Assembly: GCA_964016885.1 (NCBI GenBank)
Contig: CAXHJY010001738.1
Span: forward strand, 62,001 to 126,000
Length of the DNA: 64,000 nt
Reading direction: 5' to 3'
Origin: Eledone cirrhosa
Lineage: Eukaryota
Positions 1,261 to 52,396 of this stretch are shown piece by piece (positions within the stretch are counted from its first letter, which is position 1; every line of letters starts with the position of its first letter). Position numbers and translations under genes: made by a program. Below the pieces are notes generated by a model. The model searched no databases and was not told the DNA's origin. It saw nothing but the letters and a program-made list of their open reading frames with translations.

Positions 1261-1698
1261 ACCAAATTACCTAGCACAAACCCACAACCAACTGTCAAAA
1301 AATGTGGTCGCTCTAATTGTGGAACCTGCACTCACCTCATTGAAGGCAACACGTATACATTTAAATCAGGACAAAATTTTGGTGTAAAAAATCACTTCAC
1401 TTGCTCATCAAAAAATCTAATTTATGCCATTAAATGTAAAGGATGCAATGAAGATTATATAGGACAAACTAAACTCACACTTAGAAACAGGATGACGGTT
1501 CATCGCCAACAATTACGAGATCCAACCACGAGACAGATACCACTAAGCGCATATCTAGATATTTGCGCAAGTAATAAGACACCCAAATTCCAAGTCTTCC
1601 AATTTTACCTTTGCGCTGACAATACAACAGAACAAATATGAATAAATAAGGAAAATATGTTTATTCAAAAATATAGACCAGCAATAAATATGGTTTAA
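1261..1698 (+). pseudogene. C-terminal Zn-finger + GIY-YIG endonuclease remnant of a Penelope-like element (Neptune-like linker)
   Basis: Manual translation gives KKCGRSNCGTC...FTCSSKNLIYAIKCKGCNEDYIGQTKLTLRNRMTVH...KENMFIQKYRPAIN; premature TGA at 1639-1641; no RT upstream. Confidence 0.8.
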
Positions 1699-3451: not shown

Positions 3452-3572
3452 CATAAGTTGAAAAAAATGAAAACGAAATTTCATTTCTCACTCTTAGTAT
3501 GGCACTTACTTAAATGTAAGTATGTATGTATACGTACATACATATATGTATACAGACGTACAGTAGCATGCA
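3452..3572 (-). mobile_element. Fragment of ~423-nt hammerhead-bearing non-coding repeat (family E)
   Basis: Nearly identical to 7789-7906; continues at 7457 after the 511-bp array. Confidence 0.75.
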
Positions 3573-3710
3573 TATATATATATATATAAAGCGCTCATAT
3601 ATTCACCTAGCTTACGCTAAACAGAATAATTATGAAGCTTGTTTCTTTCCCCTACGGTTAGCTATACTCTTTGTTGTTCTCCTGTCTCACTCGCTTTACG
3701 CGTTTCAATT

Positions 3711-3811
3711 GTCCTAATAACTTATTTTGTTTATTCTTGCACCGACGTGTGGTATATGATTTTTAATGCAATGAAATATCTATGATCGTCGGCAAATCAT
3801 TGATGAGGGAC
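3711..3811 (+). ncRNA. Rearranged hammerhead ribozyme, array copy 1 (degenerate)
   Basis: Same fold as other copies but core UUGAUGA (C3U without compensation) and k-turn GA changed to GU. Confidence 0.55.
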
Positions 3812-4221
3812 TCATTTTATTGCATGTTATCCATGTGCTACCTGCAGTATTTTTCTCTATATTTTATTACATATATTTACCCAAACTGCGATTCTGTGTT
3901 TTTTTCTCTCTCTCTCTTACTGCTCCCACATTCTCTCTGTTTCTCCTACCTTCTTTCGCCCCCTCTGTCATGTCAGTTAACTCATCCTCACACTTTCACT
4001 TACTCACTGTTTCTCCTCTCTTCATTTCATCCTGTACACCACGAAGGCTATTTTTCTCTCTTCTCACATGGCCATCGTTCGTGCCAGGTTTTTTTTCTAA
4101 AGCGCTCATATATTCACCTAGCTTATGCTAAACAGAATAATTTTGAAGCTTGTTTCTTTCCCCTACGGTTAGCTATACTCTTTGTTGTTCTCCTGTCTCA
4201 CTCGCTTTACGCGTTTCAATT

Positions 4222-4322
4222 GTCCTAATAACTTATTTTGGTTATTATTGCACCGACGTGAGGTATATGATTTTTAATGCAATGAAATATCTATGATCGT
4301 CGGCAAATCACTGATGAGGGAC
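4222..4322 (+). ncRNA. Rearranged (non-circularly permuted) hammerhead ribozyme, array copy 2 (intact)
   Basis: GGUAU-A^UGAUUU ... UGCAAU-GAAA-UAUC ... AAAUCA-CUGAUGA-GGGAC; predicted cleavage after 4267. Confidence 0.75.
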
Positions 4323-4733
4323 TCATTTTATTGCATGTTATCCATGTGCTACCTGCAGTATTTTTCTCTATATTTTATTACATATATTTACCCAAACTGC
4401 GATTCTGTGTTTTTTTCTCTCTCTCTCTTACTGCTCCCACATTCTCTCTGTTTCTCCTACCTTCTTTCGCCCCCTCTGTCATATCAGTTAACTCATCCTC
4501 ACACTTTCACTTACTCACTGTTTCTCCTCTCTTCATTTCATCCTGTACACCACGAAGGTTATTTTTCTCTCTTCTCACATGGCCATCGTTCGTGCCAGGT
4601 TTTTTTTTCTAAAGCGCTCATATATTCACCTAGCTTATGCTAAACAGAATAATTTTGAAGCTTGTTTCTTTCCCCTACGGTTAGCTATACTCTTTGTTGT
4701 TCTCCTGTCTCACTCGCTTTACGCGTTTCAATT

Positions 4734-4834
4734 GTCCTAATAACTTATTTTGTTTATTCTTGCACCGACGTGAGGTATATGATTTTTAATGCAATGAAAT
4801 ATCTATGATCGTCGGCAAATCACTGATGAGGGAC
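4734..4834 (+). ncRNA. Rearranged hammerhead ribozyme, array copy 3 (intact)
   Basis: All core residues and helices present; predicted cleavage after 4779. Confidence 0.75.
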
Positions 4835-5245
4835 TCATTTTATTACATGTTATCCATGTGCTACCTGCAGTATTTTTCTCTATATTTTATTACATATATT
4901 TACCCAAACTGCGATTCTGTGTTTTTTTCTCTCTCTCTCTTACTGCTCCCACATTCTGTCTGTTTCTCCTACCTTCTTTCGCCCCCTCTGTCATGTCAGT
5001 TAACTCATCCTCACACTTTCACTTACTCACTGTTTCTCCTCTCTTCATTTCATCCTGTACACCACGAAGGCTATTTTTCTCTCTTCTCACATGGCCATCG
5101 TTCGTGTCAGGTCTTTTTTTCTAAAGCGCTCATATATTCACCTAGCTTATGCTAAACAGAATAATTTTGAAGCTTGTTTCTTTCCCCTACGGTTAGCTAT
5201 ACTCTTTGTTGTTCTCCTGTCTCACTCGCTTTACGCGTTTCAATT

Positions 5246-5346
5246 GTCCTAATAACTTATTTTGTTTATTATTGCACCGACGTGAGGTATATGATTTTTA
5301 ATGCAATGAAATATCTATGATCGTCGGCAAATCACTGATGAGGGAC
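5246..5346 (+). ncRNA. Rearranged hammerhead ribozyme, array copy 4 (intact)
   Basis: All core residues and helices present; predicted cleavage after 5291. Confidence 0.75.
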
Positions 5347-5756
5347 TCATTTTATTACATGTTATCCATGTGCTACCTGCAGTATTTTTCTCTATATTTT
5401 ATTACTTATATTTACCCAAACTGCGCTTCTGTGTTTTTTTCTCTCTCTCTCTTACTGATCCCCCATTCTCTCTGTTTCTCCTACCTTCTTTCGCCCCCTC
5501 TGTCATGTCAGTTAACTCTTCCTCACACTTTCACTTATTCACTGTTTCTCCTCTCTTCATTTCATCCTGTACACCACGAAGGCTATTTTTCTCTCTTCTC
5601 ACATGGCCATCGTTCGTGTCAGGTCTTTTTTCTAAAGCGCTCATATATTCACCTAGCTTATGCTAAACAGAATAATTTTGAAGCTTGTTTCTTTCCCCTA
5701 CGGTTAGCTATACTCTTTGTTGTTCTCATGTCTCACTCGCTTTACGCGTTTCAATT

Positions 5757-5857
5757 GTCCTAATAACTTATTTTGTTTATTCTTGCACCGACGTGAGGTA
5801 TATGATTTTTAATGCAATGAAATATCTATGATCGTCGGCAAAACACTGATGAGTGAC
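5757..5857 (+). ncRNA. Rearranged hammerhead ribozyme, array copy 5 (helix mismatches)
   Basis: Core intact; stem I AAAACA and closing helix GUGAC mismatched. Confidence 0.6.
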
Positions 5858-6267
5858 TCATTTTATTACATGTTATCCATGTGCTACCTGCAGTATTTTT
5901 CTCTATATTTTATTACATATATTTACCCAAACTGCGATTCTGTGTTTTTTTCTCTCTCTCTCTTACTGCTCCCCCATTCTCTCTGTTTCACCTACTTTCT
6001 TTCGCCCCCTCTGTCATGTCAGTTAACTCTTCCTCACACTTTCACTTACTCACTGTTTCTCCTCTCTTCATTTCATCCTGTACACCACGAAGGCTATTTT
6101 TCTCTCTTCTCACATGGCCATCGTTCGTGTCAGGTCTTTTTTCTAAAGCGCTCATATATTCACCTAGCTTATGCTAAACAGAATAATTCTGAAGCTTGTT
6201 TCTTTCCCCTACGGTTAGCTATATTCTTTGTTGTTCTCCTGTCTCACTCGCTTTACGCGTTTCAATT

Positions 6268-6368
6268 GTCCTAATAACTTATTTTGGTTATTATTGCACC
6301 GACGTGTGGTATATGATTTTTAATGCAATGAAATATCTATGATCGTCGGCAAATCACTGATGAGGGAC
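6268..6368 (+). ncRNA. Rearranged hammerhead ribozyme, array copy 6 (k-turn variant)
   Basis: Core intact; k-turn strand UGU instead of UGA. Confidence 0.65.
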
Positions 6369-6780
6369 TCATTTTATTACATGTTATCCATGTGCTACCT
6401 GCAGTATTTTTCTCTATATTTTATTACATATATTTACCCAAACTGCGATTCTGTGTTTTTTTCTCTCTCTCTCTCTTACTGCTCCCCCATTCTCTCTGTT
6501 TCTCCTACCTTCTTTCGCCCCCTCTGTCATGTCAGTTAACTCTTCCTCACACTTTCACTCACTCACTGTTTCTCCTCTCTTCATTTCATCCCGTACACCA
6601 CGAAGGCTATTTTTCTCTCTTCTCACATGGCCATCGTTCGTGTCAGGTCTTTTTTCTAAAGCGCTCATATATTCACCTAGCTTATGCTAAACAGAATAAT
6701 TCTGAAGCTTGTTTCTTTCCCCTACGGTTAGCTATACTCTTTGTTGTTCTCCTGTCTCACTCGCTTTACGCGTTTCAATT

Positions 6781-6881
6781 GTCCTAATAACTTATTTTGT
6801 TTATTATTGCACCGACGTGAGGTATATGATTTTTAATGCAATGAAATATCTATGATCGTCGGCAAATCACTGATGAGTGAC
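6781..6881 (+). ncRNA. Rearranged hammerhead ribozyme, array copy 7
   Basis: Core intact; closing helix GUGAC variant. Confidence 0.65.
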
Positions 6882-7291
6882 TCATTTTATTACATGTTAT
6901 CCATGTGCTACCTGCAGTATTTTTCTCTATATTTTATTACATATATTTACCCAAACTGCGATTCTGTGTTTTTTTCTCTCTCTCTCTTACTGCTCCCCCA
7001 TTCTCTCTGTTTCTCCTACCTTCTTTCGCCCCCTCTGTCATGTCAGTTAACTCATCCTCACACTTTCACTCACTCACTGTTTCTCCTCTCTTCATTTCAT
7101 CCTGTACACCACGAAGGCTATTTTTCTCTCTTCTCACATGGCCATCGTTCGTGTCAGGTCTTTTTTCTAAAGCGCTCATATATTCACCTAGCTTATGCTA
7201 AACAGAATAATTCTGAAGCTTGTTTCTTTCCCCTACGGTTAGCTATACTCTTTGTTGTTCTCCTGTCTCACTCGCTTTACGCGTTTCAATT

Positions 7292-7392
7292 GTCCTAATA
7301 ACTTATTTTGTTTATTATTGCACCGACGTGAGGTATATGATTTTTAATGCAATGAAATATCTATGATCGTCGGCAAATCACTGATGAGGGAC
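7292..7392 (+). ncRNA. Rearranged hammerhead ribozyme, array copy 8 (intact)
   Basis: All core residues and helices present; predicted cleavage after 7337. Confidence 0.75.
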
Positions 7393-7456
7393 TCATTTTA
7401 TTACATGTTATCCATGTGCTACCTGCAGTATTTTTCTCTATATTTTATTACATATA

Positions 7457-7903
7457 TATATATATATATATACATACAGGTACACATACATATATGCACG
7501 CATCAGTTTAGCGGACGCTTATTATAACGCCGCTTTTTTCGTTTGTCAACAAACTGAACAGCCCGAATTTATGCCATACGGTGTTAAGGCAACCACGTCA
7601 CCTTTTTGTTCAACACTGACACAGGAACGATGTACTAGTTTCAAGCTTGTTAACTATCATCAGCACCGTTTACCCATCTGCCAGATAGTTGAACGTTCGA
7701 AAGTATATACTTTCCTTATGTAAATTAACGGCTGAGCAGCCTAATTTGCATATTGAGTGAGTTAAATCGGTCAGGCATACCGAAAACGATAAGTTGAAAA
7801 AAATGAAAACGAAATTTCATTTCTCACTCTTAGTATGGCACTTTCTTAAATGTAAGTATGTATGTATACGTACATACATATATGTATACAGACGTACAGT
7901 AGC

Positions 7904-7906
<3 letters not shown>
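7457..7906 (-). mobile_element. Family E non-coding hammerhead repeat (one unit)
   Basis: Homologous to 18336-18860 and 57995-58408; contains hammerhead 7626-7670. Confidence 0.8.
7626..7670 (-). ncRNA. Minimal type I hammerhead ribozyme
   Basis: Minus strand AACGGUG-CUGAUGA-UAGUUAACAAGCUU-GAAA-CUAG-UA^CAUCGUU; palindromic stem III. Confidence 0.85.
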
Positions 7907-7949
<43 letters not shown>

Positions 7950-7981
7950 AGATCAAAAGATGGTTAAAGGAGTTCAATATA

Positions 7982-8048
7982 TTTTATTATGCGCATTTCA
8001 AAAACAAACATCATCAAACAATAATATTTGTGTTTTCATCAGATAAAA
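7982..8048 (-). ncRNA. Type I hammerhead ribozyme of the PLE pseudo-LTR
   Basis: UUUUAU-CUGAUGA-(long stem II)-GAAA-UGCGCA-UA^AUAAAA. Confidence 0.85.
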
Positions 8049-9267
8049 CAGGAGAACATGATATGAAGGCTAAAAAAACACTTGTTGATAGTGCGGTTTT
8101 AAATCAACATATGAAAAGTGGTTTTAGATTGATGTGTGATATTGGGAAAAATATTTTATTTAGAGAGGGGGGGAGAGAAAAGGATGAAAAGGGAAGGAGA
8201 TGAGAGGGAGAGATGGGTGATAGAGAGAAAGAGATAGTTTTTATAACAGAGAGGAGATATATATTATATAGAGGGGTTGAAAACCGTTGGAAGATACTGT
8301 ATAAATTAAAAATTTTGAAAATTAACGAAGGGAGGATATGTGCGAGGAAAAAATATATTATATTTAGGGAGGGGTGGGGGTGGAAAGGATGAAAAAAAGG
8401 GGAGGAGATGAGAGTGAAGGTGGAAAGGGAGAGATGGGTGATAGAGAGAAAGAGATAGTTTTTATAACTGAGAAAAAGATATAATGTTTTAATATAGAGA
8501 GGTTGGGAACCGTTGGAAGATAATGTATAAATTAAAGGAATTTGAAAATTAACGAAGGGAAAATATGTATGGAGATAGAGAGAAAAAAATAACGAAGGGA
8601 GATTATGTATGGAGATAGAGAGAAAAAAATAATAATTGTGGGTGAATATTCAAAAGGAGAAATGTAGGAATCTTAAAATTAGCAAAGAGAAAATGTTTAT
8701 GTATAGGATTTGAGAAAAATTTATATTGAATTCATATGTATTAATAATGAGTTTGTTGATGGGGAGAAAAAAATAATAATAATGATAAATTAAGGATGAA
8801 ATTGAGATTAAAAAGATTTATGATAGAGAGAAAAAATAATAATGATTGCGGATGAATACTCAAAATGTCAAAAACAAATGTTATTGTTTTACGAAGAGAT
8901 ATAATGAGGGTGATGAGTAAACGGGTATTATAGAGTGTATAATGCCCTTTAAAGTAAGGTAGATGGGTATATTTTAAAGAATATATGAGTATATATTAAA
9001 AAAATATATATAATAATAAATTAAGGATGAAATTGAGATTAAAAAGATTTATGATAGAGGGAAAAAAATAATAATGATTGCGGATGAATATTCAAAATGT
9101 CAAAAACAAATGTTATTGTTTTACGAGAAGATAGGATGAGGTAAATGAATAAACGAGTACTATAGAGTGTATAATGCCCTTTAAAGTAAGGTAGATGGGT
9201 ATATTTTAAAGAGGTGTATGTATATGTGCCTTTGAGAAAAGATTCTAAATTGATAAAGAATTGAATA

Positions 9268-11730
9268 TTAACTGTATACTTTGTGAAAAGTTCTATGGAA
9301 TTTATGAAGGCAGATGGAAAACAAATCCGAGCGTCTATTTATTATGGATTCTAGGTTAGAGATAATGGTAAATTTTTCATTTAGGCAGAGATTACAGATT
9401 TTAGATAGAGAACTGTTCAAGTACGAGGATGCAGAAGAAATCTTTTTCCAAAAGATGTTATATTTAATGTTTTTGTCTTTTAAGGACCATATGAGTTCTG
9501 AGAGAGCAGTGTTAGTTCTTTTAAGTTTGTATTTGAAAGATGAATGATGATTATAGAGACGAGCTTTAAAAGAGGTGGAAGTGGAGCCAAAATAGGTGAA
9601 GGAGTTGGTGCTAGTTATAATTTTACATTCATAAATTAAGTTTTTATCGAGGCAATGGTTGTTGAGAGGACATTTATTTTTAATGCGGCAGTTGCAATTA
9701 GAGAGATTATTAATGAGTGATCTAGTGTTATCTATAGAAGGAATTGGATTGGAGAAGTTGTTTGCGATAGGAATAATAGGAGTAATAGTTTCTTGATTTA
9801 GAGTTGGATTATGAACATTTAACGAAGTTGTGTTTGACGTTGTATTTGGGTTTACAGAAGTTAGCCTAGGGTTTACAATGACGTCAGGAGTGCTATTATT
9901 GTTATTATGAGATTCAATATTGGAAGGAAGAGATTTAGTATTTAATATTTTGTTGTTGTGTTTAGAAATGATGTTGGAAATATTGGAGGATGTAGAATAC
10001 GAAAATTTAATGGTGTGTTTGTTAAATATTTTACTATAGATATGTGAGGGAGGGAAGCATTTATTTAAGGCACTAAAAAATAATTTAGGAATATTGTTAT
10101 TAATAGAGATGGAGAAAGGAGCATTATACCAGATTATGTTTTTGTATCTAGGTCTTTTATTAAAATTATTGGAATGGTTATGATTAAATATTCTACTGTA
10201 AGTTTTCCTAGAATTTGTTTCTTTATTATATTTGATTTTATCTGGATAGCCAGCTTTAGAAAGTGCGTTATTATAGTAATTGGCGTTAGCATCAAAGATG
10301 TTTTTATTAGAAGATATGTTAGATATTCTATTTCCAATATTATTAACTATAGCATTCTTGATATTGGTAGGATGGTTAGATTTAAAGTTAACATAATTAA
10401 GATTCTCATTGTTTTTATGGTAAGGGTAATATAGGCCAGTGTCAAGATTAAGAGATACATCCAAGAAATTAGCTAGTTTGGTACTATTATCAAATTCAAT
10501 TTTTAGGTTATGTTGGTTAAAGAGATTACGTATATTGTTCTTAATAATATTAAGTTTAACTATATTGCAATTTAGGATAGTAAAGAGTCCATCGTCACGA
10601 TAAATTCCACCGCGAAGTTGAGGAATTTTCCGACTCAAAGAGTTCAAAATGAAGATACCAATTAAATCAGTCAATTGGGATGAATCGGATGCTCCCATTG
10701 TGATGTCGAAGTTGTTAGAGGTATCGGCTCTGGTCCAATATTCGTTGTTGAACTCTAGGATGGTTTTACGTGCGGTGAGGATGATGTGAAGTTCATCTGT
10801 GGTGATGTCAGAATATTTAAGTGCGAAAGATAGAGCATTATTGAGAAGTGAAGGCGAAATGGAGGAATAGTAGCTGGCAATATCGAATTGAATAAATTTT
10901 AGTTTGTTTTTATTATCCAATTTGTTGAACCAGCCAATCACTTCAGAAGTACCAAACCATAAATTTAGGTTTAAAGAAGAGCAATTAGAACTAACCTGTG
11001 GGATAATCCTATCCAAGATGGCTTTACTAACAACCCCCAGATCAGATTTAGAGGGGGCGATTAATCTAACAGGTAGTTCAGTGCGAAAATTGTTTTTGTG
11101 ATCCTTGAGATTTATCCTCGGAGTTCTTGGGAGGAATGGTTCGGTCTTTTTTTCAATGCCAAGTTTTGACATAATCTCATAGGCTTCAAGGTTTATGCAT
11201 TCTAAATTTTCATGGTTGGTTTTACGATACTTTTTCCTAAGTTCCTTTAGGATAAGGTTGTTATAATTATCCTTGGAAATACCATATAGGTTATTGGTTT
11301 TGTCAGAGTGGACTAAAACATTTTTTGAGGAATTTAGGTTAGAGATTGTGTTCTTGAGATTTACAAGGTGCTCTTGTCCTTTGTAAGGGTATCTCTTGAA
11401 TTTAAGATTTTTTATAATTTTAGTTAATTCTTCCTCGAATTGTGCTAGATTTTTGTTGGAAGGAGGATTTCGTCTGGAATTAAAAAGATGATCGAGGAAG
11501 TTGTGTTCTTTGGTATGAAAGTTCCCTTTTAGGCGCTGGTCATAGAAATAGGCTGTCCATCTAAGTCTTCTTACGAAGGAGTCAGTTTTTTCAATAAGAA
11601 GTTTGGTGAATTCAGATTTACCAGGTATAGGAATGTCTTTAGTAGAATTGGTTATGTTGTAATAATCCATGTTGTAGAAGAAGAGGTGAAGGACCATCAA
11701 AAGGTATCCAATATGAGAGTAAGCGCTCAA
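9268..11730 (-). CDS. PLE polyprotein: reverse transcriptase + C-terminal GIY-YIG endonuclease (intact; true start may be the downstream ATG of MDYYN)
   Basis: SDKT, QFDIASYY, TMGASDS, GIYRDDG, NFLDV, SNHP; LIYECKI..TYFGST..FKARLYNH; CNLCLNEK. Confidence 0.93.
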   Translation of the reverse strand: MSAYSHIGYLLMVLHLFFYNMDYYNITNSTKDIPIPGKSEFTKLLIEKTDSFVRRLRWTAYFYDQRLKGNFHTKEHNFLDHLFNSRRNPPSNKNLAQFEEELTKIIKNLKFKRYPYKGQEHLVNLKNTISNLNSSKNVLVHSDKTNNLYGISKDNYNNLILKELRKKYRKTNHENLECINLEAYEIMSKLGIEKKTEPFLPRTPRINLKDHKNNFRTELPVRLIAPSKSDLGVVSKAILDRIIPQVSSNCSSLNLNLWFGTSEVIGWFNKLDNKNKLKFIQFDIASYYSSISPSLLNNALSFALKYSDITTDELHIILTARKTILEFNNEYWTRADTSNNFDITMGASDSSQLTDLIGIFILNSLSRKIPQLRGGIYRDDGLFTILNCNIVKLNIIKNNIRNLFNQHNLKIEFDNSTKLANFLDVSLNLDTGLYYPYHKNNENLNYVNFKSNHPTNIKNAIVNNIGNRISNISSNKNIFDANANYYNNALSKAGYPDKIKYNKETNSRKTYSRIFNHNHSNNFNKRPRYKNIIWYNAPFSISINNNIPKLFFSALNKCFPPSHIYSKIFNKHTIKFSYSTSSNISNIISKHNNKILNTKSLPSNIESHNNNNSTPDVIVNPRLTSVNPNTTSNTTSLNVHNPTLNQETITPIIPIANNFSNPIPSIDNTRSLINNLSNCNCRIKNKCPLNNHCLDKNLIYECKIITSTNSFTYFGSTSTSFKARLYNHHSSFKYKLKRTNTALSELIWSLKDKNIKYNIFWKKISSASSYLNSSLSKICNLCLNEKFTIISNLESIINRRSDLFSICLHKFHRTFHKVYS

Positions 11731-11876
11731 CCGTTAAGGAGCAAGTAAATGTAGGAGGTGAGTTTTATTGTAGTACAATAAAGCAATGCAGATATCGGAT
11801 AAGAAGCACTCTACAGTTTGTGGGACTGGAGTATGCATAATATAAGATCAAAAGATGGTTAAAGGAGTTCAATATA

Positions 11877-11943
11877 TTTTATTATGCGCATTTCAAAAAC
11901 AAACATCATCAAACAATAATATTTGTGTTTTCATCAGATAAAA
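11877..11943 (-). ncRNA. Type I hammerhead ribozyme at the junction between PLE units
   Basis: Identical to 7982-8048; lies ~150 nt upstream of the left ORF. Confidence 0.85.
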
Positions 11944-13162
11944 CAGGAGAACATGATATGAAGGCTAAAAAAACACTTGTTGATAGTGCGGTTTTAAATC
12001 AACATATGAAAAGTGGTTTTAGATTGATGTGTGATATTGGGAAAAATATTTTATTTAGAGAGGGGGGGAGAGAAAAGGATGAAAAGGGAAGGAGATGAGA
12101 GGGAGAGATGGGTGATAGAGAGAAAGAGATAGTTTTTATAACAGAGAGGAGATATATATTATATAGAGGGGTTGAAAACCGTTGGAAGATACTGTATAAA
12201 TTAAAAATTTTGAAAATTAACGAAGGGAGGATATGTGCGAGGAAAAAATATATTATATTTAGGGAGGGGTGGGGGTGGAAAGGATGAAAAAAAGGGGAGG
12301 AGATGAGAGTGAAGGTGGAAAGGGAGAGATGGGTGATAGAGAGAAAGAGATAGTTTTTATAACTGAGAAAAAGATATAATGTTTTAATATAGAGAGGTTG
12401 GGAACCGTTGGAAGATAATGTATAAATTAAAGGAATTTGAAAATTAACGAAGGGAAAATATGTATGGAGATAGAGAGAAAAAAATAACGAAGGGAGATTA
12501 TGTATGGAGATAGAGAGAAAAAAATAATAATTGTGGGTGAATATTCAAAAGGAGAAATGTAGGAATCTTAAAATTAGCAAAGAGAAAATGTTTATGTATA
12601 GGATTTGAGAAAAATTTATATTGAATTCATATGTATTAATAATGAGTTTGTTGATGGGGAGAAAAAAATAATAATAATGATAAATTAAGGATGAAATTGA
12701 GATTAAAAAGATTTATGATAGAGAGAAAAAATAATAATGATTGCGGATGAATACTCAAAATGTCAAAAACAAATGTTATTGTTTTACGAAGAGATATAAT
12801 GAGGGTGATGAGTAAACGGGTATTATAGAGTGTATAATGCCCTTTAAAGTAAGGTAGATGGGTATATTTTAAAGAATATATGAGTATATATTAAAAAAAT
12901 ATATATAATAATAAATTAAGGATGAAATTGAGATTAAAAAGATTTATGATAGAGGGAAAAAAATAATAATGATTGCGGATGAATATTCAAAATGTCAAAA
13001 ACAAATGTTATTGTTTTACGAGAAGATAGGATGAGGTAAATGAATAAACGAGTACTATAGAGTGTATAATGCCCTTTAAAGTAAGGTAGATGGGTATATT
13101 TTAAAGAGGTGTATGTATATGTGCCTTTGAGAAAAGATTCTAAATTGATAAAGAATTGAATA

Positions 13163-15625
13163 TTAACTGTATACTTTGTGAAAAGTTCTATGGAATTTAT
13201 GAAGGCAGATGGAAAACAAATCCGAGCGTCTATTTATTATGGATTCTAGGTTAGAGATAATGGTAAATTTTTCATTTAGGCAGAGATTACAGATTTTAGA
13301 TAGAGAACTGTTCAAGTACGAGGATGCAGAAGAAATCTTTTTCCAAAAGATGTTATATTTAATGTTTTTGTCTTTTAAGGACCATATGAGTTCTGAGAGA
13401 GCAGTGTTAGTTCTTTTAAGTTTGTATTTGAAAGATGAATGATGATTATAGAGACGAGCTTTAAAAGAGGTGGAAGTGGAGCCAAAATAGGTGAAGGAGT
13501 TGGTGCTAGTTATAATTTTACATTCATAAATTAAGTTTTTATCGAGGCAATGGTTGTTGAGAGGACATTTATTTTTAATGCGGCAGTTGCAATTAGAGAG
13601 ATTATTAATGAGTGATCTAGTGTTATCTATAGAAGGAATTGGATTGGAGAAGTTGTTTGCGATAGGAATAATAGGAGTAATAGTTTCTTGATTTAGAGTT
13701 GGATTATGAACATTTAACGAAGTTGTGTTTGACGTTGTATTTGGGTTTACAGAAGTTAGCCTAGGGTTTACAATGACGTCAGGAGTGCTATTATTGTTAT
13801 TATGAGATTCAATATTGGAAGGAAGAGATTTAGTATTTAATATTTTGTTGTTGTGTTTAGAAATGATGTTGGAAATATTGGAGGATGTAGAATACGAAAA
13901 TTTAATGGTGTGTTTGTTAAATATTTTACTATAGATATGTGAGGGAGGGAAGCATTTATTTAAGGCACTAAAAAATAATTTAGGAATATTGTTATTAATA
14001 GAGATGGAGAAAGGAGCATTATACCAGATTATGTTTTTGTATCTAGGTCTTTTATTAAAATTATTGGAATGGTTATGATTAAATATTCTACTGTAAGTTT
14101 TCCTAGAATTTGTTTCTTTATTATATTTGATTTTATCTGGATAGCCAGCTTTAGAAAGTGCGTTATTATAGTAATTGGCGTTAGCATCAAAGATGTTTTT
14201 ATTAGAAGATATGTTAGATATTCTATTTCCAATATTATTAACTATAGCATTCTTGATATTGGTAGGATGGTTAGATTTAAAGTTAACATAATTAAGATTC
14301 TCATTGTTTTTATGGTAAGGGTAATATAGGCCAGTGTCAAGATTAAGAGATACATCCAAGAAATTAGCTAGTTTGGTACTATTATCAAATTCAATTTTTA
14401 GGTTATGTTGGTTAAAGAGATTACGTATATTGTTCTTAATAATATTAAGTTTAACTATATTGCAATTTAGGATAGTAAAGAGTCCATCGTCACGATAAAT
14501 TCCACCGCGAAGTTGAGGAATTTTCCGACTCAAAGAGTTCAAAATGAAGATACCAATTAAATCAGTCAATTGGGATGAATCGGATGCTCCCATTGTGATG
14601 TCGAAGTTGTTAGAGGTATCGGCTCTGGTCCAATATTCGTTGTTGAACTCTAGGATGGTTTTACGTGCGGTGAGGATGATGTGAAGTTCATCTGTGGTGA
14701 TGTCAGAATATTTAAGTGCGAAAGATAGAGCATTATTGAGAAGTGAAGGCGAAATGGAGGAATAGTAGCTGGCAATATCGAATTGAATAAATTTTAGTTT
14801 GTTTTTATTATCCAATTTGTTGAACCAGCCAATCACTTCAGAAGTACCAAACCATAAATTTAGGTTTAAAGAAGAGCAATTAGAACTAACCTGTGGGATA
14901 ATCCTATCCAAGATGGCTTTACTAACAACCCCCAGATCAGATTTAGAGGGGGCGATTAATCTAACAGGTAGTTCAGTGCGAAAATTGTTTTTGTGATCCT
15001 TGAGATTTATCCTCGGAGTTCTTGGGAGGAATGGTTCGGTCTTTTTTTCAATGCCAAGTTTTGACATAATCTCATAGGCTTCAAGGTTTATGCATTCTAA
15101 ATTTTCATGGTTGGTTTTACGATACTTTTTCCTAAGTTCCTTTAGGATAAGGTTGTTATAATTATCCTTGGAAATACCATATAGGTTATTGGTTTTGTCA
15201 GAGTGGACTAAAACATTTTTTGAGGAATTTAGGTTAGAGATTGTGTTCTTGAGATTTACAAGGTGCTCTTGTCCTTTGTAAGGGTATCTCTTGAATTTAA
15301 GATTTTTTATAATTTTAGTTAATTCTTCCTCGAATTGTGCTAGATTTTTGTTGGAAGGAGGATTTCGTCTGGAATTAAAAAGATGATCGAGGAAGTTGTG
15401 TTCTTTGGTATGAAAGTTCCCTTTTAGGCGCTGGTCATAGAAATAGGCTGTCCATCTAAGTCTTCTTACGAAGGAGTCAGTTTTTTCAATAAGAAGTTTG
15501 GTGAATTCAGATTTACCAGGTATAGGAATGTCTTTAGTAGAATTGGTTATGTTGTAATAATCCATGTTGTAGAAGAAGAGGTGAAGGACCATCAAAAGGT
15601 ATCCAATATGAGAGTAAGCGCTCAA
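13163..15625 (-). CDS. PLE polyprotein RT + GIY-YIG, second identical copy
   Basis: Translation identical to 9268-11730. Confidence 0.93.
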   Translation of the reverse strand: MSAYSHIGYLLMVLHLFFYNMDYYNITNSTKDIPIPGKSEFTKLLIEKTDSFVRRLRWTAYFYDQRLKGNFHTKEHNFLDHLFNSRRNPPSNKNLAQFEEELTKIIKNLKFKRYPYKGQEHLVNLKNTISNLNSSKNVLVHSDKTNNLYGISKDNYNNLILKELRKKYRKTNHENLECINLEAYEIMSKLGIEKKTEPFLPRTPRINLKDHKNNFRTELPVRLIAPSKSDLGVVSKAILDRIIPQVSSNCSSLNLNLWFGTSEVIGWFNKLDNKNKLKFIQFDIASYYSSISPSLLNNALSFALKYSDITTDELHIILTARKTILEFNNEYWTRADTSNNFDITMGASDSSQLTDLIGIFILNSLSRKIPQLRGGIYRDDGLFTILNCNIVKLNIIKNNIRNLFNQHNLKIEFDNSTKLANFLDVSLNLDTGLYYPYHKNNENLNYVNFKSNHPTNIKNAIVNNIGNRISNISSNKNIFDANANYYNNALSKAGYPDKIKYNKETNSRKTYSRIFNHNHSNNFNKRPRYKNIIWYNAPFSISINNNIPKLFFSALNKCFPPSHIYSKIFNKHTIKFSYSTSSNISNIISKHNNKILNTKSLPSNIESHNNNNSTPDVIVNPRLTSVNPNTTSNTTSLNVHNPTLNQETITPIIPIANNFSNPIPSIDNTRSLINNLSNCNCRIKNKCPLNNHCLDKNLIYECKIITSTNSFTYFGSTSTSFKARLYNHHSSFKYKLKRTNTALSELIWSLKDKNIKYNIFWKKISSASSYLNSSLSKICNLCLNEKFTIISNLESIINRRSDLFSICLHKFHRTFHKVYS

Positions 15626-15805
15626 CCGTTAAGGAGCAAGTAAATGTAGGAGGTGAGTTTTATTGTAGTACAATAAAGCAATGCAGATATCCTTTAACCA
15701 TCTTTTGATCTTATATTATGCATACTCCAGTCCCACAAACTGTAGAGTGCTTCTTATCCGATATCTGCATTGCTTTATTGTACTACAATAAAACTCACCT
15801 CCTAC

Positions 15806-15897
<92 letters not shown>

Positions 15898-15902
<5 letters not shown>

Positions 15903-16006
15903 CGTATGGCATAAATTCGGGCTGTTCAGTTTGTCGACAAACGAACAAAGCGGCCTTATAATAAGCGTCCGCTAAACTGATGCGTGCATATATGTATGTG
16001 TACCTG

Positions 16007-16066
<60 letters not shown>

Positions 16067-16372: not shown

Positions 16373-16722
16373 ATATATATATATATATTCCTCTTTCCTT
16401 TTTTCTCTTTCTTCCTCTCTCTTCACTATCTTTTCTTTCCCTCAGGGCCTTTTGATTGATAAAAGGCCTTGGGCGCGCTGCTGATCAATTTCGATGTCCT
16501 GTTTGAAGCGCTGAAACATCTATGATCTGCAGTTAACAGCTGATGAATGGTTTCTTCTCTTGTTACGTCCATATTACGATCTTTGTTTAGTGTAACTACA
16601 CAGCCTGCTTCGTTTCTTATATATATATATATATGAAAGACGTAAAATAAGAAAATTATAAAAATTAACTTACTTACTAAAATTTCACTCCAACTAATTC
16701 TTTATATATATTTATATATATG

Positions 16723-18335: not shown

Positions 18336-19000
18336 AAATATAAGTATGTATACGTATATACATATATGTATACAGACGTACAGTAGTATGTATATACATA
18401 CATACATGCACACATATATATATGTACGTATGGGTTTACCGAACATTTATTATAATGCTCGGTTTGCATGTAAACAAACATCCCGTATTAAGCCGTACAG
18501 TGTTCGGCAACCATCGTTGCCCTTTTGTTCAACACTGACTAAGGGACGATGTACTAGTTTCTAGCTTATTAGCTGTCATCAGCATCGTATACCTTCTTGT
18601 CCGTCGATTGAACGTTTGAAACTATATACTTTCCTTATGCATATTAACGGCTGAGCAGCCTAATTTGCATATCGAGTGAGTTAGTCGCCCGGGTGTACTG
18701 AAAACGATAAATGGAAAAAATGAAATTTCATTTCTCACTCTTACTACGGCTGATACTTAAATATAAGTATGTATACGTACATACATATATGTATACAGAC
18801 GTACAGTAATATGTATATATATATATACATGTATACAGACGTACAGTAGTATGTATATACATGCATATATTTATACAGACGTACAGTAGTATGTATATAT
18901 ATATACATATATATATATATATGTACGTATGGCTTGCCGAATATGCTTAAGGAAAATATATACTTTCAAACGTTCAATTGACTGACAGGAAGGTATATAT
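18336..19000 (-). mobile_element. Family E repeat, ~1.2 units (period 423) plus inverted piece
   Basis: taagtatgtatacgta at 18341 and 18764; internal hammerhead. Confidence 0.8.
18546..18588 (-). ncRNA. Minimal type I hammerhead ribozyme (family E)
   Basis: ACGAUG-CUGAUGA-CAGCUAAUAAGCUA-GAAA-CUAG-UA^CAUCGU. Confidence 0.8.
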
Positions 19001-32963: not shown

Positions 32964-33511
32964 TATATAGTAGTGAAAGAGTGAAAAATAACATGGTCGG
33001 CTGTACAGAAAGGCTTTTATTTACAGTATTAACAATTGTTTCATTGATCAGGTGAAATTGCGTCACTCGACCTTAATTACAATGTGTGTCTCTGATCAAA
33101 ACATCGGAATACTATATATACATATATATATATATATATTTAGAAACACACAGATACATGCGGACACACACATATATATGAATGCATCCACACCCAACCG
33201 TGAATTATGGGGCCAACCTTACCGATGTTGCTCAATGAATGACTGGGACAGACCAATCCGGTTGAATTAGACTTAATGAAGTGTAGTGACTGCTGGAAAG
33301 CTGCCATTACTCATACTTCTCTCCCCCTTCACCACCTCTTCTACGGCTTCGATATAAATACCCCCTCCGCCTCCGTGGTATTTTCTTCGGGGTTATAAGA
33401 GGCTTAGCTCTGTTTCTCGACCGTTATATCGCGTGACTATCTCCTCCTCCGCCTTTTGGGATTCTTTCTCACGTCGTGTAGACGCGTTCTTGAAGCTAGT
33501 AAAATGAGGTA

Positions 33512-33601
33512 TCCTCTTGATAAGTCGGCAGACCTCGCAAGAACTCTATATCTTTATGATGTATTGTTTTTGTTTATGCCACGAAACTACGTAGTCGAGG
33601 A
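33512..33601 (+). ncRNA. Type I hammerhead, U3-A8 core variant
   Basis: UCCUC-UUGAUAA-GUCGGCA...UGCCAC-GAAA-CUACGUAG-UC^GAGGA. Confidence 0.75.
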
Positions 33602-34104
33602 ATCTAGGAGCAGTTTAGGTATGATACATTTTATTACTAATTATATCTAAATGTTTCTTCTCTCTTCATAATGTATTTTTAACTCTGATACTGGTTCAGT
33701 CTAATTCAACCGGATTGGTCTGTCCCAGTCATTCATTGAGCAACATCGGTGAGGTTGGCACCCTTAACTCACGGTTGGGTGTGGATGCATTCATGTATAT
33801 GTGTGTGTCCGCATGTATCTGTGTGTTTCTAAATATATTGTTCATAACTCCCTCTGGTCGAGTAATCTTTGAAGTGTAGTGACTGCTGGAAAGCTGCCAT
33901 TACTCATACTTCTCGCCTCCTTCACCACCTCTTCTACGGCTTCGATATAAATACCCCCTCCGCCTCCGTGGTATTTTCTTTGGGGTTATAAGAGGCTTAG
34001 CTCTGTTTCTCGACCGTTATATCGCGTGACTATCTCCTCCTCCGCCTTTTGGGATTCTTTCTCACGTCGTGTAGACGCGTTCTTGAAGCTAGTAAAATGA
34101 GGTA

Positions 34105-34194
34105 TCCTCTTGATAAGTCGGCAGACCTCGCAAGAACTCTATATCTTTATGATGTATTGTTTTTGTTTATGCCACGAAACTACGTAGTCGAGGA
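34105..34194 (+). ncRNA. Type I hammerhead, U3-A8 variant (second unit)
   Basis: Identical to 33512-33601. Confidence 0.75.
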
Positions 34195-34263
34195 ATCTAG
34201 GAGCAGTTTAGGTATGATACATTTTATTACTAATTATATCTAAATGTTTCTTCTCTCTTCATA

Positions 34264-34338
<75 letters not shown>

Positions 34339-34343
<5 letters not shown>

Positions 34344-35036
34344 AAGGACCACTTTATTCATATGTAACCCATTTGCAACTCCGCAGCACGTTTATTCTCA
34401 TATTTACACATATTTTTTTTCCCCGCTGTGACCCGTCTATTTCGTTCTTACTGCTTCCTCTTTCTCTGTATCTTTACCCTCTCTAACAGTCACACTCTCT
34501 CTGTTAGCCTCTCCCTCACTCACTCACTCTCTGTTACTACCTCTCCTCCTCCTCCTTCTTCCCGTTTGACCTGTGCGTAATTCTTTTCTTTCGCACGTTT
34601 GGCCAGGCCGGTCGGCATTTTTTCTCTCTCTCGTCTACGATTTCACAGAACTTATGTTTACCGAATTCACGGACTAGACCCCTTCTTCCTCCCGTTAGAC
34701 CTGTGCGAAATTCCTTCCTTGCTCACATTTCAACCAGGTTTGATGGTCTTTATTCTCTCTCGTTCACGATTTCACCGAACTTATATTCATAGAAATTTTT
34801 TGACTTGACTCGTTCTTCCTCACTTTTCGTTGCTTCACCATCTTTGTTTGTTTACACTCTCGCTGTTCCCTTTATTTACATGTCCCAACGACTTTCTTTA
34901 GCCGTTGCTCGCACCAACCGGAGGTATATGGTCTTTAAAGCGAAGAAATACCGATGATGGTTGGAAGATCACTGATGAAGGACCACTTTATTCATATGTA
35001 ACCCATTTGCAACTCCGTAGCACGTTTATTCTCATA
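34339..35036 (+). mobile_element. Non-coding element related to the 511-bp unit: 634-nt monomer with ~60-nt terminal redundancy (family B)
   Basis: gatgaaggaccactttattcatatgtaacccatttgc.. at 34340 and 34974; bounded by (TA)n. Confidence 0.85.
34882..34983 (+). ncRNA. Rearranged hammerhead ribozyme (diverged homolog)
   Basis: GGUAU-A^UGGUCUU..GCGAA-GAAA-UACC..AAGAUCA-CUGAUGA-AGGAC; predicted cleavage after 34928. Confidence 0.75.
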
Positions 35037-35052
35037 TATATATATATATATA

Positions 35053-40280: not shown

Positions 40281-43200
40281 AACAACTAGAAATTGATTAA
40301 CATATAAATAAACATATGAACCAATCACAGGGGATCATTTTTACAAGTGTGTAAGCACACATAGCTAAGTAGGTAACTAAATAAAGTTAACTAGAACTTC
40401 AAAAATAGATACCTTATAATATGATTAATCTTCCTGTATATATTCCATTAAAGAAATATATTTCACCAATTAATGGAATAGTTGTCGATAACCCTATCTA
40501 CATATTTTTACTGTTCCATTAATGGATTGTTCTTGTAATTTCCTAACTAGTTGTGTTCTTTCTGTTCCTGTGAAGCCCAGCTTCTCAAGATTTGTATTGA
40601 GGCAGTTACTAACATACCCCAGTGCCCCAATAATCACAGGCATAAATCTGAAGGTGTAATCAGGGTGGAGTATCTGCAGATTTCTCATCAGTTCTGCATA
40701 AATATTCTCCTTTTCACTAATCTTTGATATTATATTGGCATCTGCTGGGCAGCTAATTTCCACTACTGTGAATGCCTTTTTTTCCCTGTCCCATATCATA
40801 ATATCTGGTCTGTTATGCCTGCATTTTACTGGGGTTTTTACTGGAACATTCCACCAGTACTCTTTCATATTATGTACATGGATATCTTCCACATTGCTGT
40901 AGCTTTTATGTGTTTATTATCGGGGCTATCTTTTTTACGAACTGCATTGTACAGTGTTGTGGCCACTACATTATGCCTCATAGGTAGATAGTACCGCGAT
41001 GACATCTTTGGACAACTGTTGATGACATGGGTGATATCCTCGATGTTAGTTCGCAGAGTCTGCACTTGTTATTACATCTAGGTGTTTTGCCTGCATCCCT
41101 ATCTCTTTTCTGAATCAGGTATTTCGTGTTAATCTCCTGTACTTGGATTGCAAAAGCGTATCCTTCAAAGTGGGAGCCAATATAGCGGTTGTTGGTCCAA
41201 GATAGACTACTTTCCTTATGTATATTACTCTCACTCTGGAGTTTCCTGGCAACATATCCATGCATGATTTTTTGCTGATAAGTATGCAGTTTTTCATCCA
41301 TGGATTCACTGTGATACTGCTGAGCGACTTCCCTGGGTGTGAGTTTTTGATTATCACACAGGGAATATCTCTCGAACAGTTCCTTCCCAAATCTCATGAT
41401 CTTATCTGTTTCATGCAGATAGACTTGCTCGAGAAACGGGCTCCTACGCTTCGAGGTTCGTAGATGTTGTCGGAGAGATATGATGCCACATTCAAATGTC
41501 GTCTGGACTGATGTTAGGCCTCTGCCTCCCTGCTTACGTTTCAAGTAAGGGCGGTCTATGTCACTGTTGATGTGGAAGTTTCCGGTGTTGTTTCGTATTT
41601 TTCGAGTTCTAACATCAACTGCTCGGATTTCGTCTACCATCCAATTGAGTATTCCAAACGTTGGTGTTAGGACAGGCACAGCAAACACATTGTGAGCCAA
41701 TGTTTTGTTTTGCGCAGAGAGTTCCGATGACCAGATCTTCCTTAATCAGGCGTAGTATTCTCTGGTTACGCGTTCTTTATTACAGATACCATTATAGGAT
41801 ATGTTCTCATCTATCCCCAGGTATCTGTAACCGTCCTCATCAGATATCGGTGAAACAGTTAGGCCATTGATGACAATGTTGCTAGATTGGGTTGTTGTTT
41901 TTCCCCGCTTTACAGTCATGTATGAGCATTTATCTTGGCCAAACTCCATTCCTACATCCTTTGAGAACGTTGTAACCAGGTCAAGATTTTTCTTCATCCC
42001 ATCCATGTTCTTGGCATAGAGTTTCAGATCGTCCACAAAGAAATTATGGGTTAGGTTCGTATTTCTGTCCTCCTGTGATCCAATGATGTATCCCTCACAT
42101 TTCTTGAGCAGAAAGGAGAAGGGGTTTAATGACAAGATGAATAATATCACACAGAGACTGTCCCCTGAAATATACCCCTGCAATATTTTATTTTATCAGT
42201 GAAAATAGAATCCTCCCTCTCTGTCTTTAACCTTAGGATAGTAGCCCAAGAAGAAGACAGCCTCTCTATGGCTCTGACAATAATGTCTGGGACTTTAGCA
42301 AGTTGGAGGGCCTCTATCATCCCAGAGTGAGGAACAGAATCGAAAGCTTTCCTGTAGTCCAGCCAGACTGTAGTCATATTCCTCCTAAGTTGTCGCACCT
42401 CCGACATCGCAGTTTTGTTGATTAGGAGTTGTTCAGCACATCCCCAAACCACTTTCTTTCCAGCTGCTTGTTCATCTGTGATGATGTTATTATTTTCACA
42501 GTGATCTTGGAGGAAATGGTTCAGGCAGGCTGTATACATCTTATACATCAGGTTCTGGCATGCAATGGGTCGGTAGTTTTTTGCCAAGTGAGTGTCTTTG
42601 TTCTTGGGGACCAGTAATGTTTGTGCTAATGTCAACCATTCTGGTATAAGTGTATCTCCCTTAAGAACTTGTTGGTAGAGGTCAGTAAGATACCTCCGAT
42701 AGAATATCAGTTTTTTTGTACCAGTAGCCGACAATCATGTTTCTTCCTGGTGTTTTCTTATCTTGGAGTTTTCCTATCACAGTCTCAAGGGTATCATCCT
42801 TTATTTCGTATGTTTTTGTTGTAGTGTAGGAGCAATAGTTCTTTTGGATTTCTCTTAGCCACACTGCATCTTGGTTGAAATTCTTCTTTTCACCCCATAT
42901 TTTGCTCCAAAAGGAATCTATGTCTTTCTGGGATGGGGCCTCAATGACACTTATTATTTTGCCCTTCATATCTCTATAGACTGATGTTTGGTTTCGTCTG
43001 AATCTTTTATTAAGCACTTTTCTCTCATCTACCTTCTTCAGGTATCGGCGTTTTTCGCTAACAGCTCTCAATTCTTGTTTGAGGGTGATCAGCTTATATT
43101 GAAGAGTTCTGCTTCTACTGTTACCAAACATCGTCTCTATTTTATTTTTCACTCTTTGTTGGTGAGGAGTGAGGTTTTTTTGTGTTTGTTTGTATGTAAG

Positions 43201-44295
43201 GAGCATTGTCACATATCCTATGTTTTTTCGTAGGTCAGCAATTTTTTTTTTCTAATTTAGTTGTATATGATGGCATTTTTGGTGGTGTTCTGTTCTTGTT
43301 AATATCTCTGTTATCATCAAGATAATGCTTCACTGTCGTTGCTAGGACATATAAACAGGCGTTGATTTGCCAAAATGTTGGGGGTTTTATCCGTCGTAAA
43401 TATTCAACCCCTATTTGGTCAATAACACGTAGTATTTCATTATTTGTTTTTTTATTAAACATTGTCGTTTTAATACGTTCAGCAAGAGAGATATTTATAT
43501 ATGAATTAATTTCTCTCTGGAAGATTTCGTTGAGGGGAAATTTCAATTGTTTATACTTTTGATTATTATCATTATCGATAGTATTTTCCACAACAGTCGA
43601 GGTAGACTCGGATGGTACACGTGGTGTCAAATTTCTTCGATTATTATTATTATCGATAGTGTTTTCCCCAGCATTCGAGGTAGACTTAAATGGTACATGT
43701 GGTGTCAAGTTTCTTACAGGCATAGTTGTTTCAAGGCACTGTTCGACCTGGCTGCTAGGAAGTCTAGTAGCATGGCGACCTGTAGCACGTGTTGTTGATA
43801 ACATGTTTGTTGTGGAGGACTTACAATTAATAATATTTATCTTATTTTTACGTTCAACAAACGTCGCTTGTTGGCGTAATTGTTTCGCTATGAAATAATT
43901 TAGCTCTGGGTGCATTTCGTTCCAGTGTAGCTTCATTCTGTTCATATAGCCAATGGAGGGATTGTTTTTTGCCATTTTATAACAATTAAATAAATCATTA
44001 TTAAGTTCAAAACTCCAAAAGAAATGCGATTTATAATTTCGGTTTCTTCTGTAGTTACAACTGAATAAAGTTTGTTTACCTCTCTCGTTGTGTTCAGCCA
44101 TGCTGTTTGTAGCAAATCCTTGTAAAATGAATTATGTATTTAGTCGGATATCTCTACGAATTCGAATAAAAGGTGTCTTCAGTAGATATAGTTAGAAGAA
44201 TAACCAGTTATTCAACATGACTGGTAGTTGTGGCATTACTGCCGGAGATAGTATTCATCTTAAATTTAATAAATAGTCTCCCACACCAAAATATG
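40281..44295 (-). mobile_element. Near full-length, frameshifted R4/Dong-type non-LTR retrotransposon (RT + restriction-like endonuclease)
   Basis: Consecutive minus ORFs: NYRPIAC, WLDYRKAFDSVPH, GIFQG/GDSL, FFVDDLKLY, YRYLG, GGRGL, CRLC..H...C, RHN, RPDI..D, VEISCP; 3' UTR ends in (TA)n. Confidence 0.88.
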
Positions 44296-51880: not shown

Positions 51881-51955
<75 letters not shown>

Positions 51956-51961
<6 letters not shown>

Positions 51962-52396
51962 TAAAATTAGTCCGTCATCAGTGATCTTCCAGCCTTCATT
52001 GGTATTTCTTCGCTTTAAAGATCATATACCTCTGGTTGGTGCGAGCAATAACTAAAGAAAATTATTGGGACACGTAAAATAGGGTGAAGCGAGCGAGACA
52101 TGTAAACAAACATAGATGGTAATGCAACGGAAAGATAGGAAGAGGGGAAAACAAGTCTGTGATATCTGTGAACTTAAGTTCTGTGAAATCATAGACGAGG
52201 AGAGATACAGGCCATCCGACCTATGTGAGATGTGAGCGAGAAAAGGATTTCACACAGGTCAAACGGGAGGAAGTGAGAGAGGGGGAGAAGCAGAGAGTGA
52301 GTGAGTGAAAGTGTGAGGCTGAAATATCACTGATGAAGGACTAATTTTATTCATATGTAACCCATGTGCAACCACGCAGCACGCCATTTTTCATAT
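51956..52396 (-). mobile_element. Truncated relative of families A/B with inverted 3' tail (52326-52396)
   Basis: Homology to 34500-35036; PLE-type inverted terminus; bounded by (TA)n. Confidence 0.8.
51970..52071 (-). ncRNA. Rearranged hammerhead ribozyme (third homolog)
   Basis: GGUAU-A^UGAUCUU..GCGAA-GAAA-UACC..AAGAUCA-CUGAUGA-CGGAC. Confidence 0.72.

Follow-up and report, generated by a model that had tools for sequence, protein, structure and literature searches.

A tandem array of predicted S-G-C hammerhead ribozymes in Eledone cirrhosa: a candidate non-autonomous retrozyme of probable Naiad origin

INTRODUCTION

Non-long terminal repeat (non-LTR) retrozymes of animals carry type I hammerhead ribozymes and form highly self-paired RNA circles of about 170-400 nucleotides (nt) (PMC7229834; 10.64898/2026.07.22.740005; published systems are described here as far as the accessible parts of their sources go). 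Hammerheads whose conserved blocks stand in the non-circular order cleavage site (S), GAAA (G), CUGANGA (C) are represented by type SGC (HRIMA-1; Eckert et al. 2023, PMC10085705), which has been validated in vitro and comes from metatranscriptomes, with none in the genomes of known organisms in the accessible part of that report. The Naiad group of Penelope-like elements (PLEs) targets (TA)n and, within the same limits, lacks canonical hammerheads, some members being flagged for "core" or "half core" motifs (PMC8557442). Here we describe a tandem array in a 64,000-nt stretch of DNA from Eledone cirrhosa (contig CAXHJY010001738.1, positions 62,001 to 126,000; the whole stretch is called the window, and coordinates refer to it). 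Judging from its sequence, the array is likely to be a non-autonomous retrozyme that arose from the 3' end of a Naiad, carries an S-G-C hammerhead, and is now probably copied by the enzyme of another PLE.

The array resembles non-LTR retrozymes in being non-coding, low in GC, and tandem, with one hammerhead per unit, and in its monomers to multimers, its thousands of copies, and its presumed PLE dependence and origin from a pseudo-long terminal repeat (pLTR). It differs in having an S-G-C hammerhead in place of type I, units of 511-790 base pairs (bp), apparently weak self-pairing, and a link to Naiad, theirs being to Poseidon or Neptune. With HRIMA-1 it shares the block order, a full core, and a short linker that joins stem I to the strand preceding GAAA. 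HRIMA-1 has a stem II formed directly between blocks C and G and a I/II helix, an arrangement absent from the array, where both flanks are predicted to pair with a third, upstream strand (helices a and c) in a four-way junction. As in the PK hammerhead (PDB 8YDC; Zhan et al. 2024, PMC11300833), another helix would take the place of stem II, but the PK hammerhead uses its stem II loop, which is paired to a single stem-loop, whereas the array has a non-circular block order and its two stem II flanks belong to different strands. The array has in common with Naiads (PMC8557442) the (TA)n target, partial tandems, inverted 5' segments, a tail, and the 3' ribozyme fold, and unlike them it has no open reading frame (ORF). 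Hydra-clade PLEs share its (TA)n target, tandem and inverted insertions, and activity in this genome; they carry a canonical type I hammerhead and no sequence common to the unit. We found no prior description of the fold in Naiads or retrozymes in the open-licence literature.

RESULTS AND DISCUSSION

A mosaic array of 511- to 513-bp units

The array is laid out as follows.

3587..7457, forward strand: tandem array of family A, 7.6 units, 5'-truncated, with a fixed 3' end in (TA)n

An earlier note on this stretch had described about 7.5 near-identical units that begin mid-unit, end about 120 nt after the last predicted cleavage site, and sit in (TA)n, and each of these points was borne out. Self-BLAST gives units of 511-513 bp at ~98% identity that differ pairwise at 8-17 positions, and an anchor motif starts at 3588, 4099, 4611, 5123, 5634, 6145, 6658, and 7169 (periods of 511, 512, 512, 511, 511, 513, and 511). 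Eight cuts are predicted, after 3756, 4267, 4779, 5291, 5802, 6313, 6826, and 7337; the array begins 169 nt ahead of the first and ends 119 nt past the last, with (TA)n on both sides. The GC content of the unit is 38%, below the ceiling of 45-50% for non-LTR retrozymes, and accompanies a non-coding tandem layout with one hammerhead in each unit. A 153-amino-acid (aa) stop-to-stop frame inside the unit has no Pfam match, and the unit is treated as non-coding because related families have units of other lengths and little alignable sequence beyond the ribozyme.

The variants singled out previously (GUGAC in units 5 and 7, UGU in units 1 and 6) are real, as is the mosaic sharing that they suggested: across the 7 monomers, 20 of 55 pairs of informative columns are four-gamete incompatible, and no 3- or 4-unit period is present. 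Both alleles occur outside the array at 5 of the 28 polymorphic columns (30 outside monomers examined). Since all 7 monomers differ from one another, the array did not come from a single round of rolling-circle copying of a monomer. Secondary duplication or conversion, as put forward in the earlier note, is supported.

A predicted hammerhead with a proposed four-way junction in place of stem II

In each unit, the hammerhead blocks follow one another as cleavage site (AUA), GAAA, and CUGAUGA. This is none of the circular orders CGS, GSC, and SCG that, with a direct stem II, make types I, II, and III; a topology other than type I had been proposed for the array, and the S-G-C order upholds it. 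Rfam returned no ribozyme in the window at the gathering threshold and, at E<=5, nothing other than simple-repeat microRNA noise. In unit 2, all six helices are perfect, and the predicted elements, all on the forward strand, are as follows.

3711..3811: ribozyme 1, cleavage predicted 3' of 3756; probably impaired by a C-to-U change at core position C3
4222..4322: ribozyme 2, cleavage predicted 3' of A4267; all six helices perfect
4222-4226 with 4318-4322: helix a of ribozyme 2
4227-4246: hairpin b of ribozyme 2
4247-4252 with 4278-4283: helix c of ribozyme 2
4253-4258 with 4298-4303: helix d of ribozyme 2
4261-4266 with 4287-4292: stem III of ribozyme 2
4268-4273 with 4305-4310: stem I of ribozyme 2
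4284-4287 and 4311-4317: core of ribozyme 2, GAAA and CUGAUGA, respectively
4734..4834: ribozyme 3, cleavage predicted 3' of 4779; hairpin b and helix c each with one end mismatch
5246..5346: ribozyme 4, cleavage predicted 3' of 5291; hairpin b with one end mismatch
5757..5857: ribozyme 5, cleavage predicted 3' of 5802; stem I and helix a mismatched internally
6268..6368: ribozyme 6, cleavage predicted 3' of 6313; stem III with an end mismatch
6781..6881: ribozyme 7, cleavage predicted 3' of 6826; helix a with an internal mismatch
7292..7392: ribozyme 8, cleavage predicted 3' of 7337; hairpin b with one end mismatch

The full hammerhead core (CUGANGA, GAAA, and NUH, with stems I and III) is present in seven of the eight units. 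One ribozyme per unit, as claimed before, therefore describes the eight predicted sites correctly and their integrity less so: units 1, 5, and 7 carry core or helix defects, and clean release of a monomer from every unit is for that reason not assured. In our model, the 3' flank of CUGAUGA and the 5' flank of GAAA each pair with the upstream strand and not with each other. Because helix a, hairpin b, and helix c succeed one another without a gap, we infer that they form a four-way junction in the position of stem II; helix d would be an extension of stem III. The fold is thus a predicted self-cleaving hammerhead in non-circular order.

Covariation and family comparisons support the fold

Two ribozyme patterns gave 7,865 and 3,780 matches in the genome, with none in controls. 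In the 3.0-Gb genome, 2,579 places are candidates for the family A unit, and the 40 scored are dispersed over many contigs at 92-100% identity; family B has 3,756 candidate places. Unit lengths in related families are about 511-530, 610-640, and 720-790 bp, and these families align mainly over the ribozyme and barely elsewhere, with the core and all helices kept. A GAAAC-type pattern had 116 matches; most were mutated copies or unrelated sequences, but among them families D and E came to light. In these and one further family, a descriptor search found the fold retained with other stems and with AUC or GUC sites.

For the covariation analysis, 103 distinct variants from this genome were reduced to 41: 13 were filtered as truncated, the remaining 90 were clustered to 47, and 6 truncated or rearranged sequences were removed. 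The proposed pairs were formed in 95.0% of 1311 cells, and changes on both sides of a pair were seen at 11 of 32 pairs (72 cells). Shuffle controls gave 90.5%, 8.1 pairs, and 17.7 cells, a comparison that the relatedness of the sequences inflates, and controls in which the register was slid were 25-46% paired. Compensatory pairs occur in five of the six helices, with covariation in stems I and III. Because the collection patterns prescribed the core letters, conservation of the core is partly by construction. A generic S-G-C descriptor matched the window 9 times, compared with 0.1 times per locally shuffled window (20 shuffles), so the matches are not due to chance. On these sequences, the fold is well supported by covariation and very probable.

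Other readings of the unit were tried. A direct stem II with a 12-bp complement downstream occurs in family A alone and hides GAAA, and we regard it as a competing fold. Twister, hepatitis delta virus-like, pistol, and hairpin readings were considered by eye against the consensus features of these ribozymes and dropped.

Some Naiad elements carry the same predicted fold

Eighty Naiad-related metagenome loci were fetched with a query that has an N-terminal GIY-YIG domain and a reverse transcriptase (RT). The full fold was found on the sense strand and outside the ORF in 16 of them, downstream in 14 and upstream in 2; controls on the 80 loci gave three weak antisense matches and, for shuffled sequences, none. 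A further match, in locus L300, lies inside the RT frame and had been removed ahead of this count. The 16 loci represent about eight sequence types, and in 13 of them helix d, which is absent from the descriptor, beats shuffles at p<=0.02. Rfam found nothing in the 6 Naiad loci submitted to it.

The published consensus sequences of Naiads (PMC8557442, File S5, accessible records) were compared by eye, starting from matches to three core spellings among 54 records. Two Octopus Naiads are laid out like the array: hairpin b has the same 8-nt loop, and the cut lies about 120 nt short of the 3' end; the Octopus-Naiad ribozyme motif has no matches in the Eledone genome. The same arrangement can be seen in Naiads from a ctenophore, three Acropora corals, and a squid, as well as in four records placed by their position in the file. 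Six nematode Naiad consensus 3' ends (parts 13-16) have the block order C-S-G, with a direct stem II and an extra helix. This type-CSG permutation was previously known from two metagenome sequences (PMC10085705, accessible part), and a C-S-G descriptor had no matches in the 80 metagenome loci. The unit thus shares the RNA structure of Naiad 3' ends, in 16 of 80 loci and, by eye, in the Octopus Naiads, and on this sequence comparison Naiad ancestry of the repeat is likely. The chances are about even that Naiads as a whole are the home of non-circularly permuted hammerheads, with an undescribed S-G-C form, its stem II replaced by a four-way junction, in most lineages and C-S-G in nematodes, and that the array is a circular-RNA parasite that arose from a Naiad, survived it, switched PLE clades, and reached over 11,000 ribozyme copies.

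Two Naiad 3' ends at bivalve positions in the same file (part 23) look twister-like when set against the twister consensus, an unconfirmed lead.

Penelope-type insertion and exactly periodic arrays

Among 149 ribozyme copies from the fetched loci, a non-random sample, 97 run into (TA)n at most 220 nt away from the cut. Its onset is at +58 to +70 in 26 copies, at +102 to +128 in 68, and elsewhere in 3. Two internal start sites 30-40 nt apart are the tail signature of a PLE, as found in vitro for an anole element (PMC11167929, accessible part), and by analogy the following segment of the array matches the PLE "tail."

7393..7457, forward strand: 3' segment with two inferred reverse-transcription start zones, at about +65 and at +105 to +121

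The 5' ends vary among copies, one family A locus is inverted, and inversions are common in family B. Fixed 3' ends with a tail, 5' truncation, inversions, and a microsatellite target are the marks of a non-autonomous PLE derivative and indicate Penelope-type insertion of the copies. Insertions start downstream of the cut and extend backwards across intact junctions, which would require a circular, uncut, or switched template.

Two family A arrays elsewhere in the genome bear on this choice. The first (G000:C4:232630160-232634788), aligned with itself at a lag of 3 units, shows 0 mismatches over 3096 nt, compared with 22 over 4118 at a lag of one unit; the exact period spans both partial end units, and the array ends at a start site. 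The second (G000:C4:43235210-43242485) has a 4-unit period, with lag-4 distances of 0-5 in 8 of 9 comparisons; it begins at the cleavage site, and every fourth unit has a dead core. Such periods fit repeated copying of a trimer or tetramer circle, and duplication of a DNA block may be their alternative source. In all, 160 (TA)n-joined 5' ends fall at the cut site; 24 of the first 100 listed are of family A type, whereas a control site in family A that has similar microhomology gave 18. We do not take this roughly twofold difference as evidence of cleavage in vivo.

These observations can be combined in a tentative mechanism. The 5' strand, made up of helix a, hairpin b, and helix c, would clamp the base after CUGAUGA and the base before GAAA, and read-through RNA would be cut at AUA, slowly or incompletely. 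Monomers and multimers would arise, some probably being ligated into circles. A PLE RT-endonuclease would then bind the RNA, nick (TA)n, and start reverse transcription at an internal position about 65 or 110 nt downstream of the cut, and the complementary DNA (cDNA) would run back through intact ribozyme junctions and end as 5'-truncated partial tandems. The array in the window may later have been remixed by unequal exchange or conversion, or it may have been copied from an already mixed source.

Several observations weigh against this reading, in addition to the limits of the variant collection given above. In a pseudoknot-free model, units 1, 2, and 6 favour a helix that hides GAAA (probability 0.88-0.98) and units 4 and 8 favour a hairpin across the core; with such competing folds, cutting may be slow or subject to regulation. 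No compensatory change was seen in helix a among the 41 variants; the helix is invariant in this genome, and its support therefore comes from the Naiads. Among the Naiads themselves, the fold is missing from 30 of the 43 loci that have at least 300 nt of 3' sequence, some of which end short of the element end, and a universal S-G-C fold in Naiads is not supported. None of 31 extended Naiad remnants in the Eledone genome has the ribozyme in its own 3' end, so that direct descent has no local support, and the PLE family closest at hand as an enzyme donor (Hydra clade; see below) has no 3' sequence homology to the unit. Folded as a circle, the monomer is 39-46% paired. Its folding z score is -1.78, with 5 of 100 shuffles as good; this self-pairing appears weak, unlike that of described retrozyme circles. 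Finally, cleavage by the hammerhead of the anole PLE is dispensable for insertion in vitro (PMC11167929, accessible part).

Some of these points would suit a reading in which linear, uncut multimeric RNA moves as a PLE derivative of the short interspersed element type. The fold would then serve as a protein handle or transcript trimmer, no circles would form, and the periodic arrays would be DNA block duplications. Competing inactive folds, apparently weak monomer structure, and the dispensable anole hammerhead fit such a reading, and it would also accommodate the small number of 5' ends at the cut site (160, versus 7,865 intact matches) and the dead core in one unit of four in the 4-periodic array. 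Against it, the core and helices have been kept across families that are otherwise barely alignable and whose units range from 511 to about 790 bp, and in an array whose end falls on a start site, the partial units at either end keep to the exact 3-unit period. We consider the linear-RNA reading unlikely and favour cleavage, probably with ligation of some RNAs into circles.

Living Naiads and the source of the enzyme

Naiads were sought in the Eledone genome. A pattern of conserved Naiad motifs gave 11 matches, 10 of them decayed and Naiad-like. Two Naiad RT protein queries, which are no more than 29% alike, matched 115 and 46 times; the matches are fragments, most of them interrupted by stops. 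Both queries returned the same decayed loci and no young family among the candidates scored (the best 150 of 165 and the best 131 of 3517, respectively). No ORF with an N-terminal GIY-YIG domain and an RT accompanies the unit: none of the loci fetched by ribozyme or unit queries contains a Naiad-like tblastn match, and neither the Hydra-clade neighbour nor the 31 Naiad remnants show the 3' homology expected of an autonomous partner. Two Naiad remnant loci held separate retrozyme insertions. The remnants are similar to Octopus Naiads, which together with an Argonauta match points to a cephalopod host. The earlier note had set its claim of a non-autonomous retrozyme against the possibility that the unit always occurs as the pLTR of an autonomous element, and with no autonomous carrier found the claim is supported. 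Cephalopod Naiads are described as long inactive (PMC8557442, accessible part). Since the repeat is young and the detectable Naiads are dead, another PLE likely supplies the enzyme.

It is improbable, and more so than the linear-RNA reading, that the donor is an intact Naiad family that was missed because it is unassembled or too divergent, the repeat being the partner of a living Naiad. The ribozyme, the (TA)n target, and the 3' geometry are all Naiad-like, and the searches in this genome scored the best candidates only. The agreement of two unrelated RT queries on the same decayed loci, the decayed state of 10 of the 11 motif matches, and the published inactivity of cephalopod Naiads argue for a donor outside the Naiads.

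A PLE about 0.5 kb from the array had been reported; the gap is 485 bp, and the element has an intact 821-aa frame.

7942..15810, reverse strand: autonomous PLE with Hydra-clade motifs, two identical 3855-bp copies and an inverted 121-bp 5' segment
9268-11733 and 13163-15628, reverse strand: 821-aa open frames of the PLE
7968..8052 and, in the second copy, 11863-11947, reverse strand: canonical type I hammerhead of the PLE, read from the sequence, cut about 43 nt before the PLE 3' end

Its motifs (RW, DKT, CxCx5C, CxxC, and CxH) match the accessible description of the Hydra clade in PMC8557442, and on this motif match we assign it there. The family has 113,600 first-look candidates genome-wide, and all 55 copies scored are 99-100% identical, 52 of them stop-free; judged by these sequences, it is active and very young. 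As parent of the unit, this PLE was rejected: it gives simple-repeat matches only and has its own canonical type I hammerhead. The earlier proposal of a retrozyme that uses Penelope machinery thus holds as far as a non-autonomous, Penelope-type element goes, while the neighbouring PLE is not the parent and the ribozyme points to Naiad. Among the PLE families looked at, the Hydra-clade family is the best candidate for the enzyme donor, on its target site and activity only.

A plain satellite amplified as DNA, with the hammerhead likeness a functionless relic, would suit the mosaic array in the window (20 of 55 incompatible pairs, both alleles outside at 5 of 28 columns) but is very improbable, as the compensatory changes in the fold and the dispersal of copies with common 3' ends, at 92-99% identity, over many contigs speak against it, the fixed 3' ends largely refuting it.

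If the retrozyme reading is correct, a non-circularly permuted ribozyme so far confined to environmental sequence would be present in animal chromosomes in more than 11,000 copies, and the four-way junction serving as stem II would be a new hammerhead architecture. It would offer a possible answer to why Naiads thrive without a canonical hammerhead, many of them carrying a form that descriptors and Rfam miss, and censuses of retrozymes with type I descriptors would overlook the S-G-C class entirely. The exact 3- and 4-unit periods would allow the copying of circular templates by PLE enzymes to be examined from genome sequence.

Other features of the window

Three further insertions of related S-G-C ribozyme families lie within the same 64 kb.

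16440..16555, forward strand: family E copy of the S-G-C ribozyme with a GUC site, a short insertion flanked by (TA)n
34340..35040, forward strand: family B insertion, one ~640-bp unit, ribozyme at about 34885-34985
51960..52395, no single strand: family B-like copy, one segment of it inverted; its ribozyme lies on the reverse strand at about 51965-52075

The array and the neighbouring PLE share a compound insertion site. A 136-bp sequence duplicated ahead of each of them belongs to a ~470-bp high-copy repeat, pieces of which lie at 3453-3588, 7459-7928, 15903-16046, and 18387-18835, and an inverted copy of this repeat is found past the 5' end of the PLE. Another non-coding family (33134-34296 and 51027-51884) has a PLE-like layout, partially tandem with inverted ends beside (TA)n; the ribozyme search in it was a CUGANGA scan only. 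A GIY-YIG fragment of another PLE is present at 1261-1641 (forward strand), and a possible decayed minimal hammerhead was noticed by eye near 2785-2815. A frameshifted RT remnant with RVT_1 matches occupies 40978-44131 (reverse strand), and a long, degenerate, CAC-rich tandem repeat extends from 60682 to 63972.

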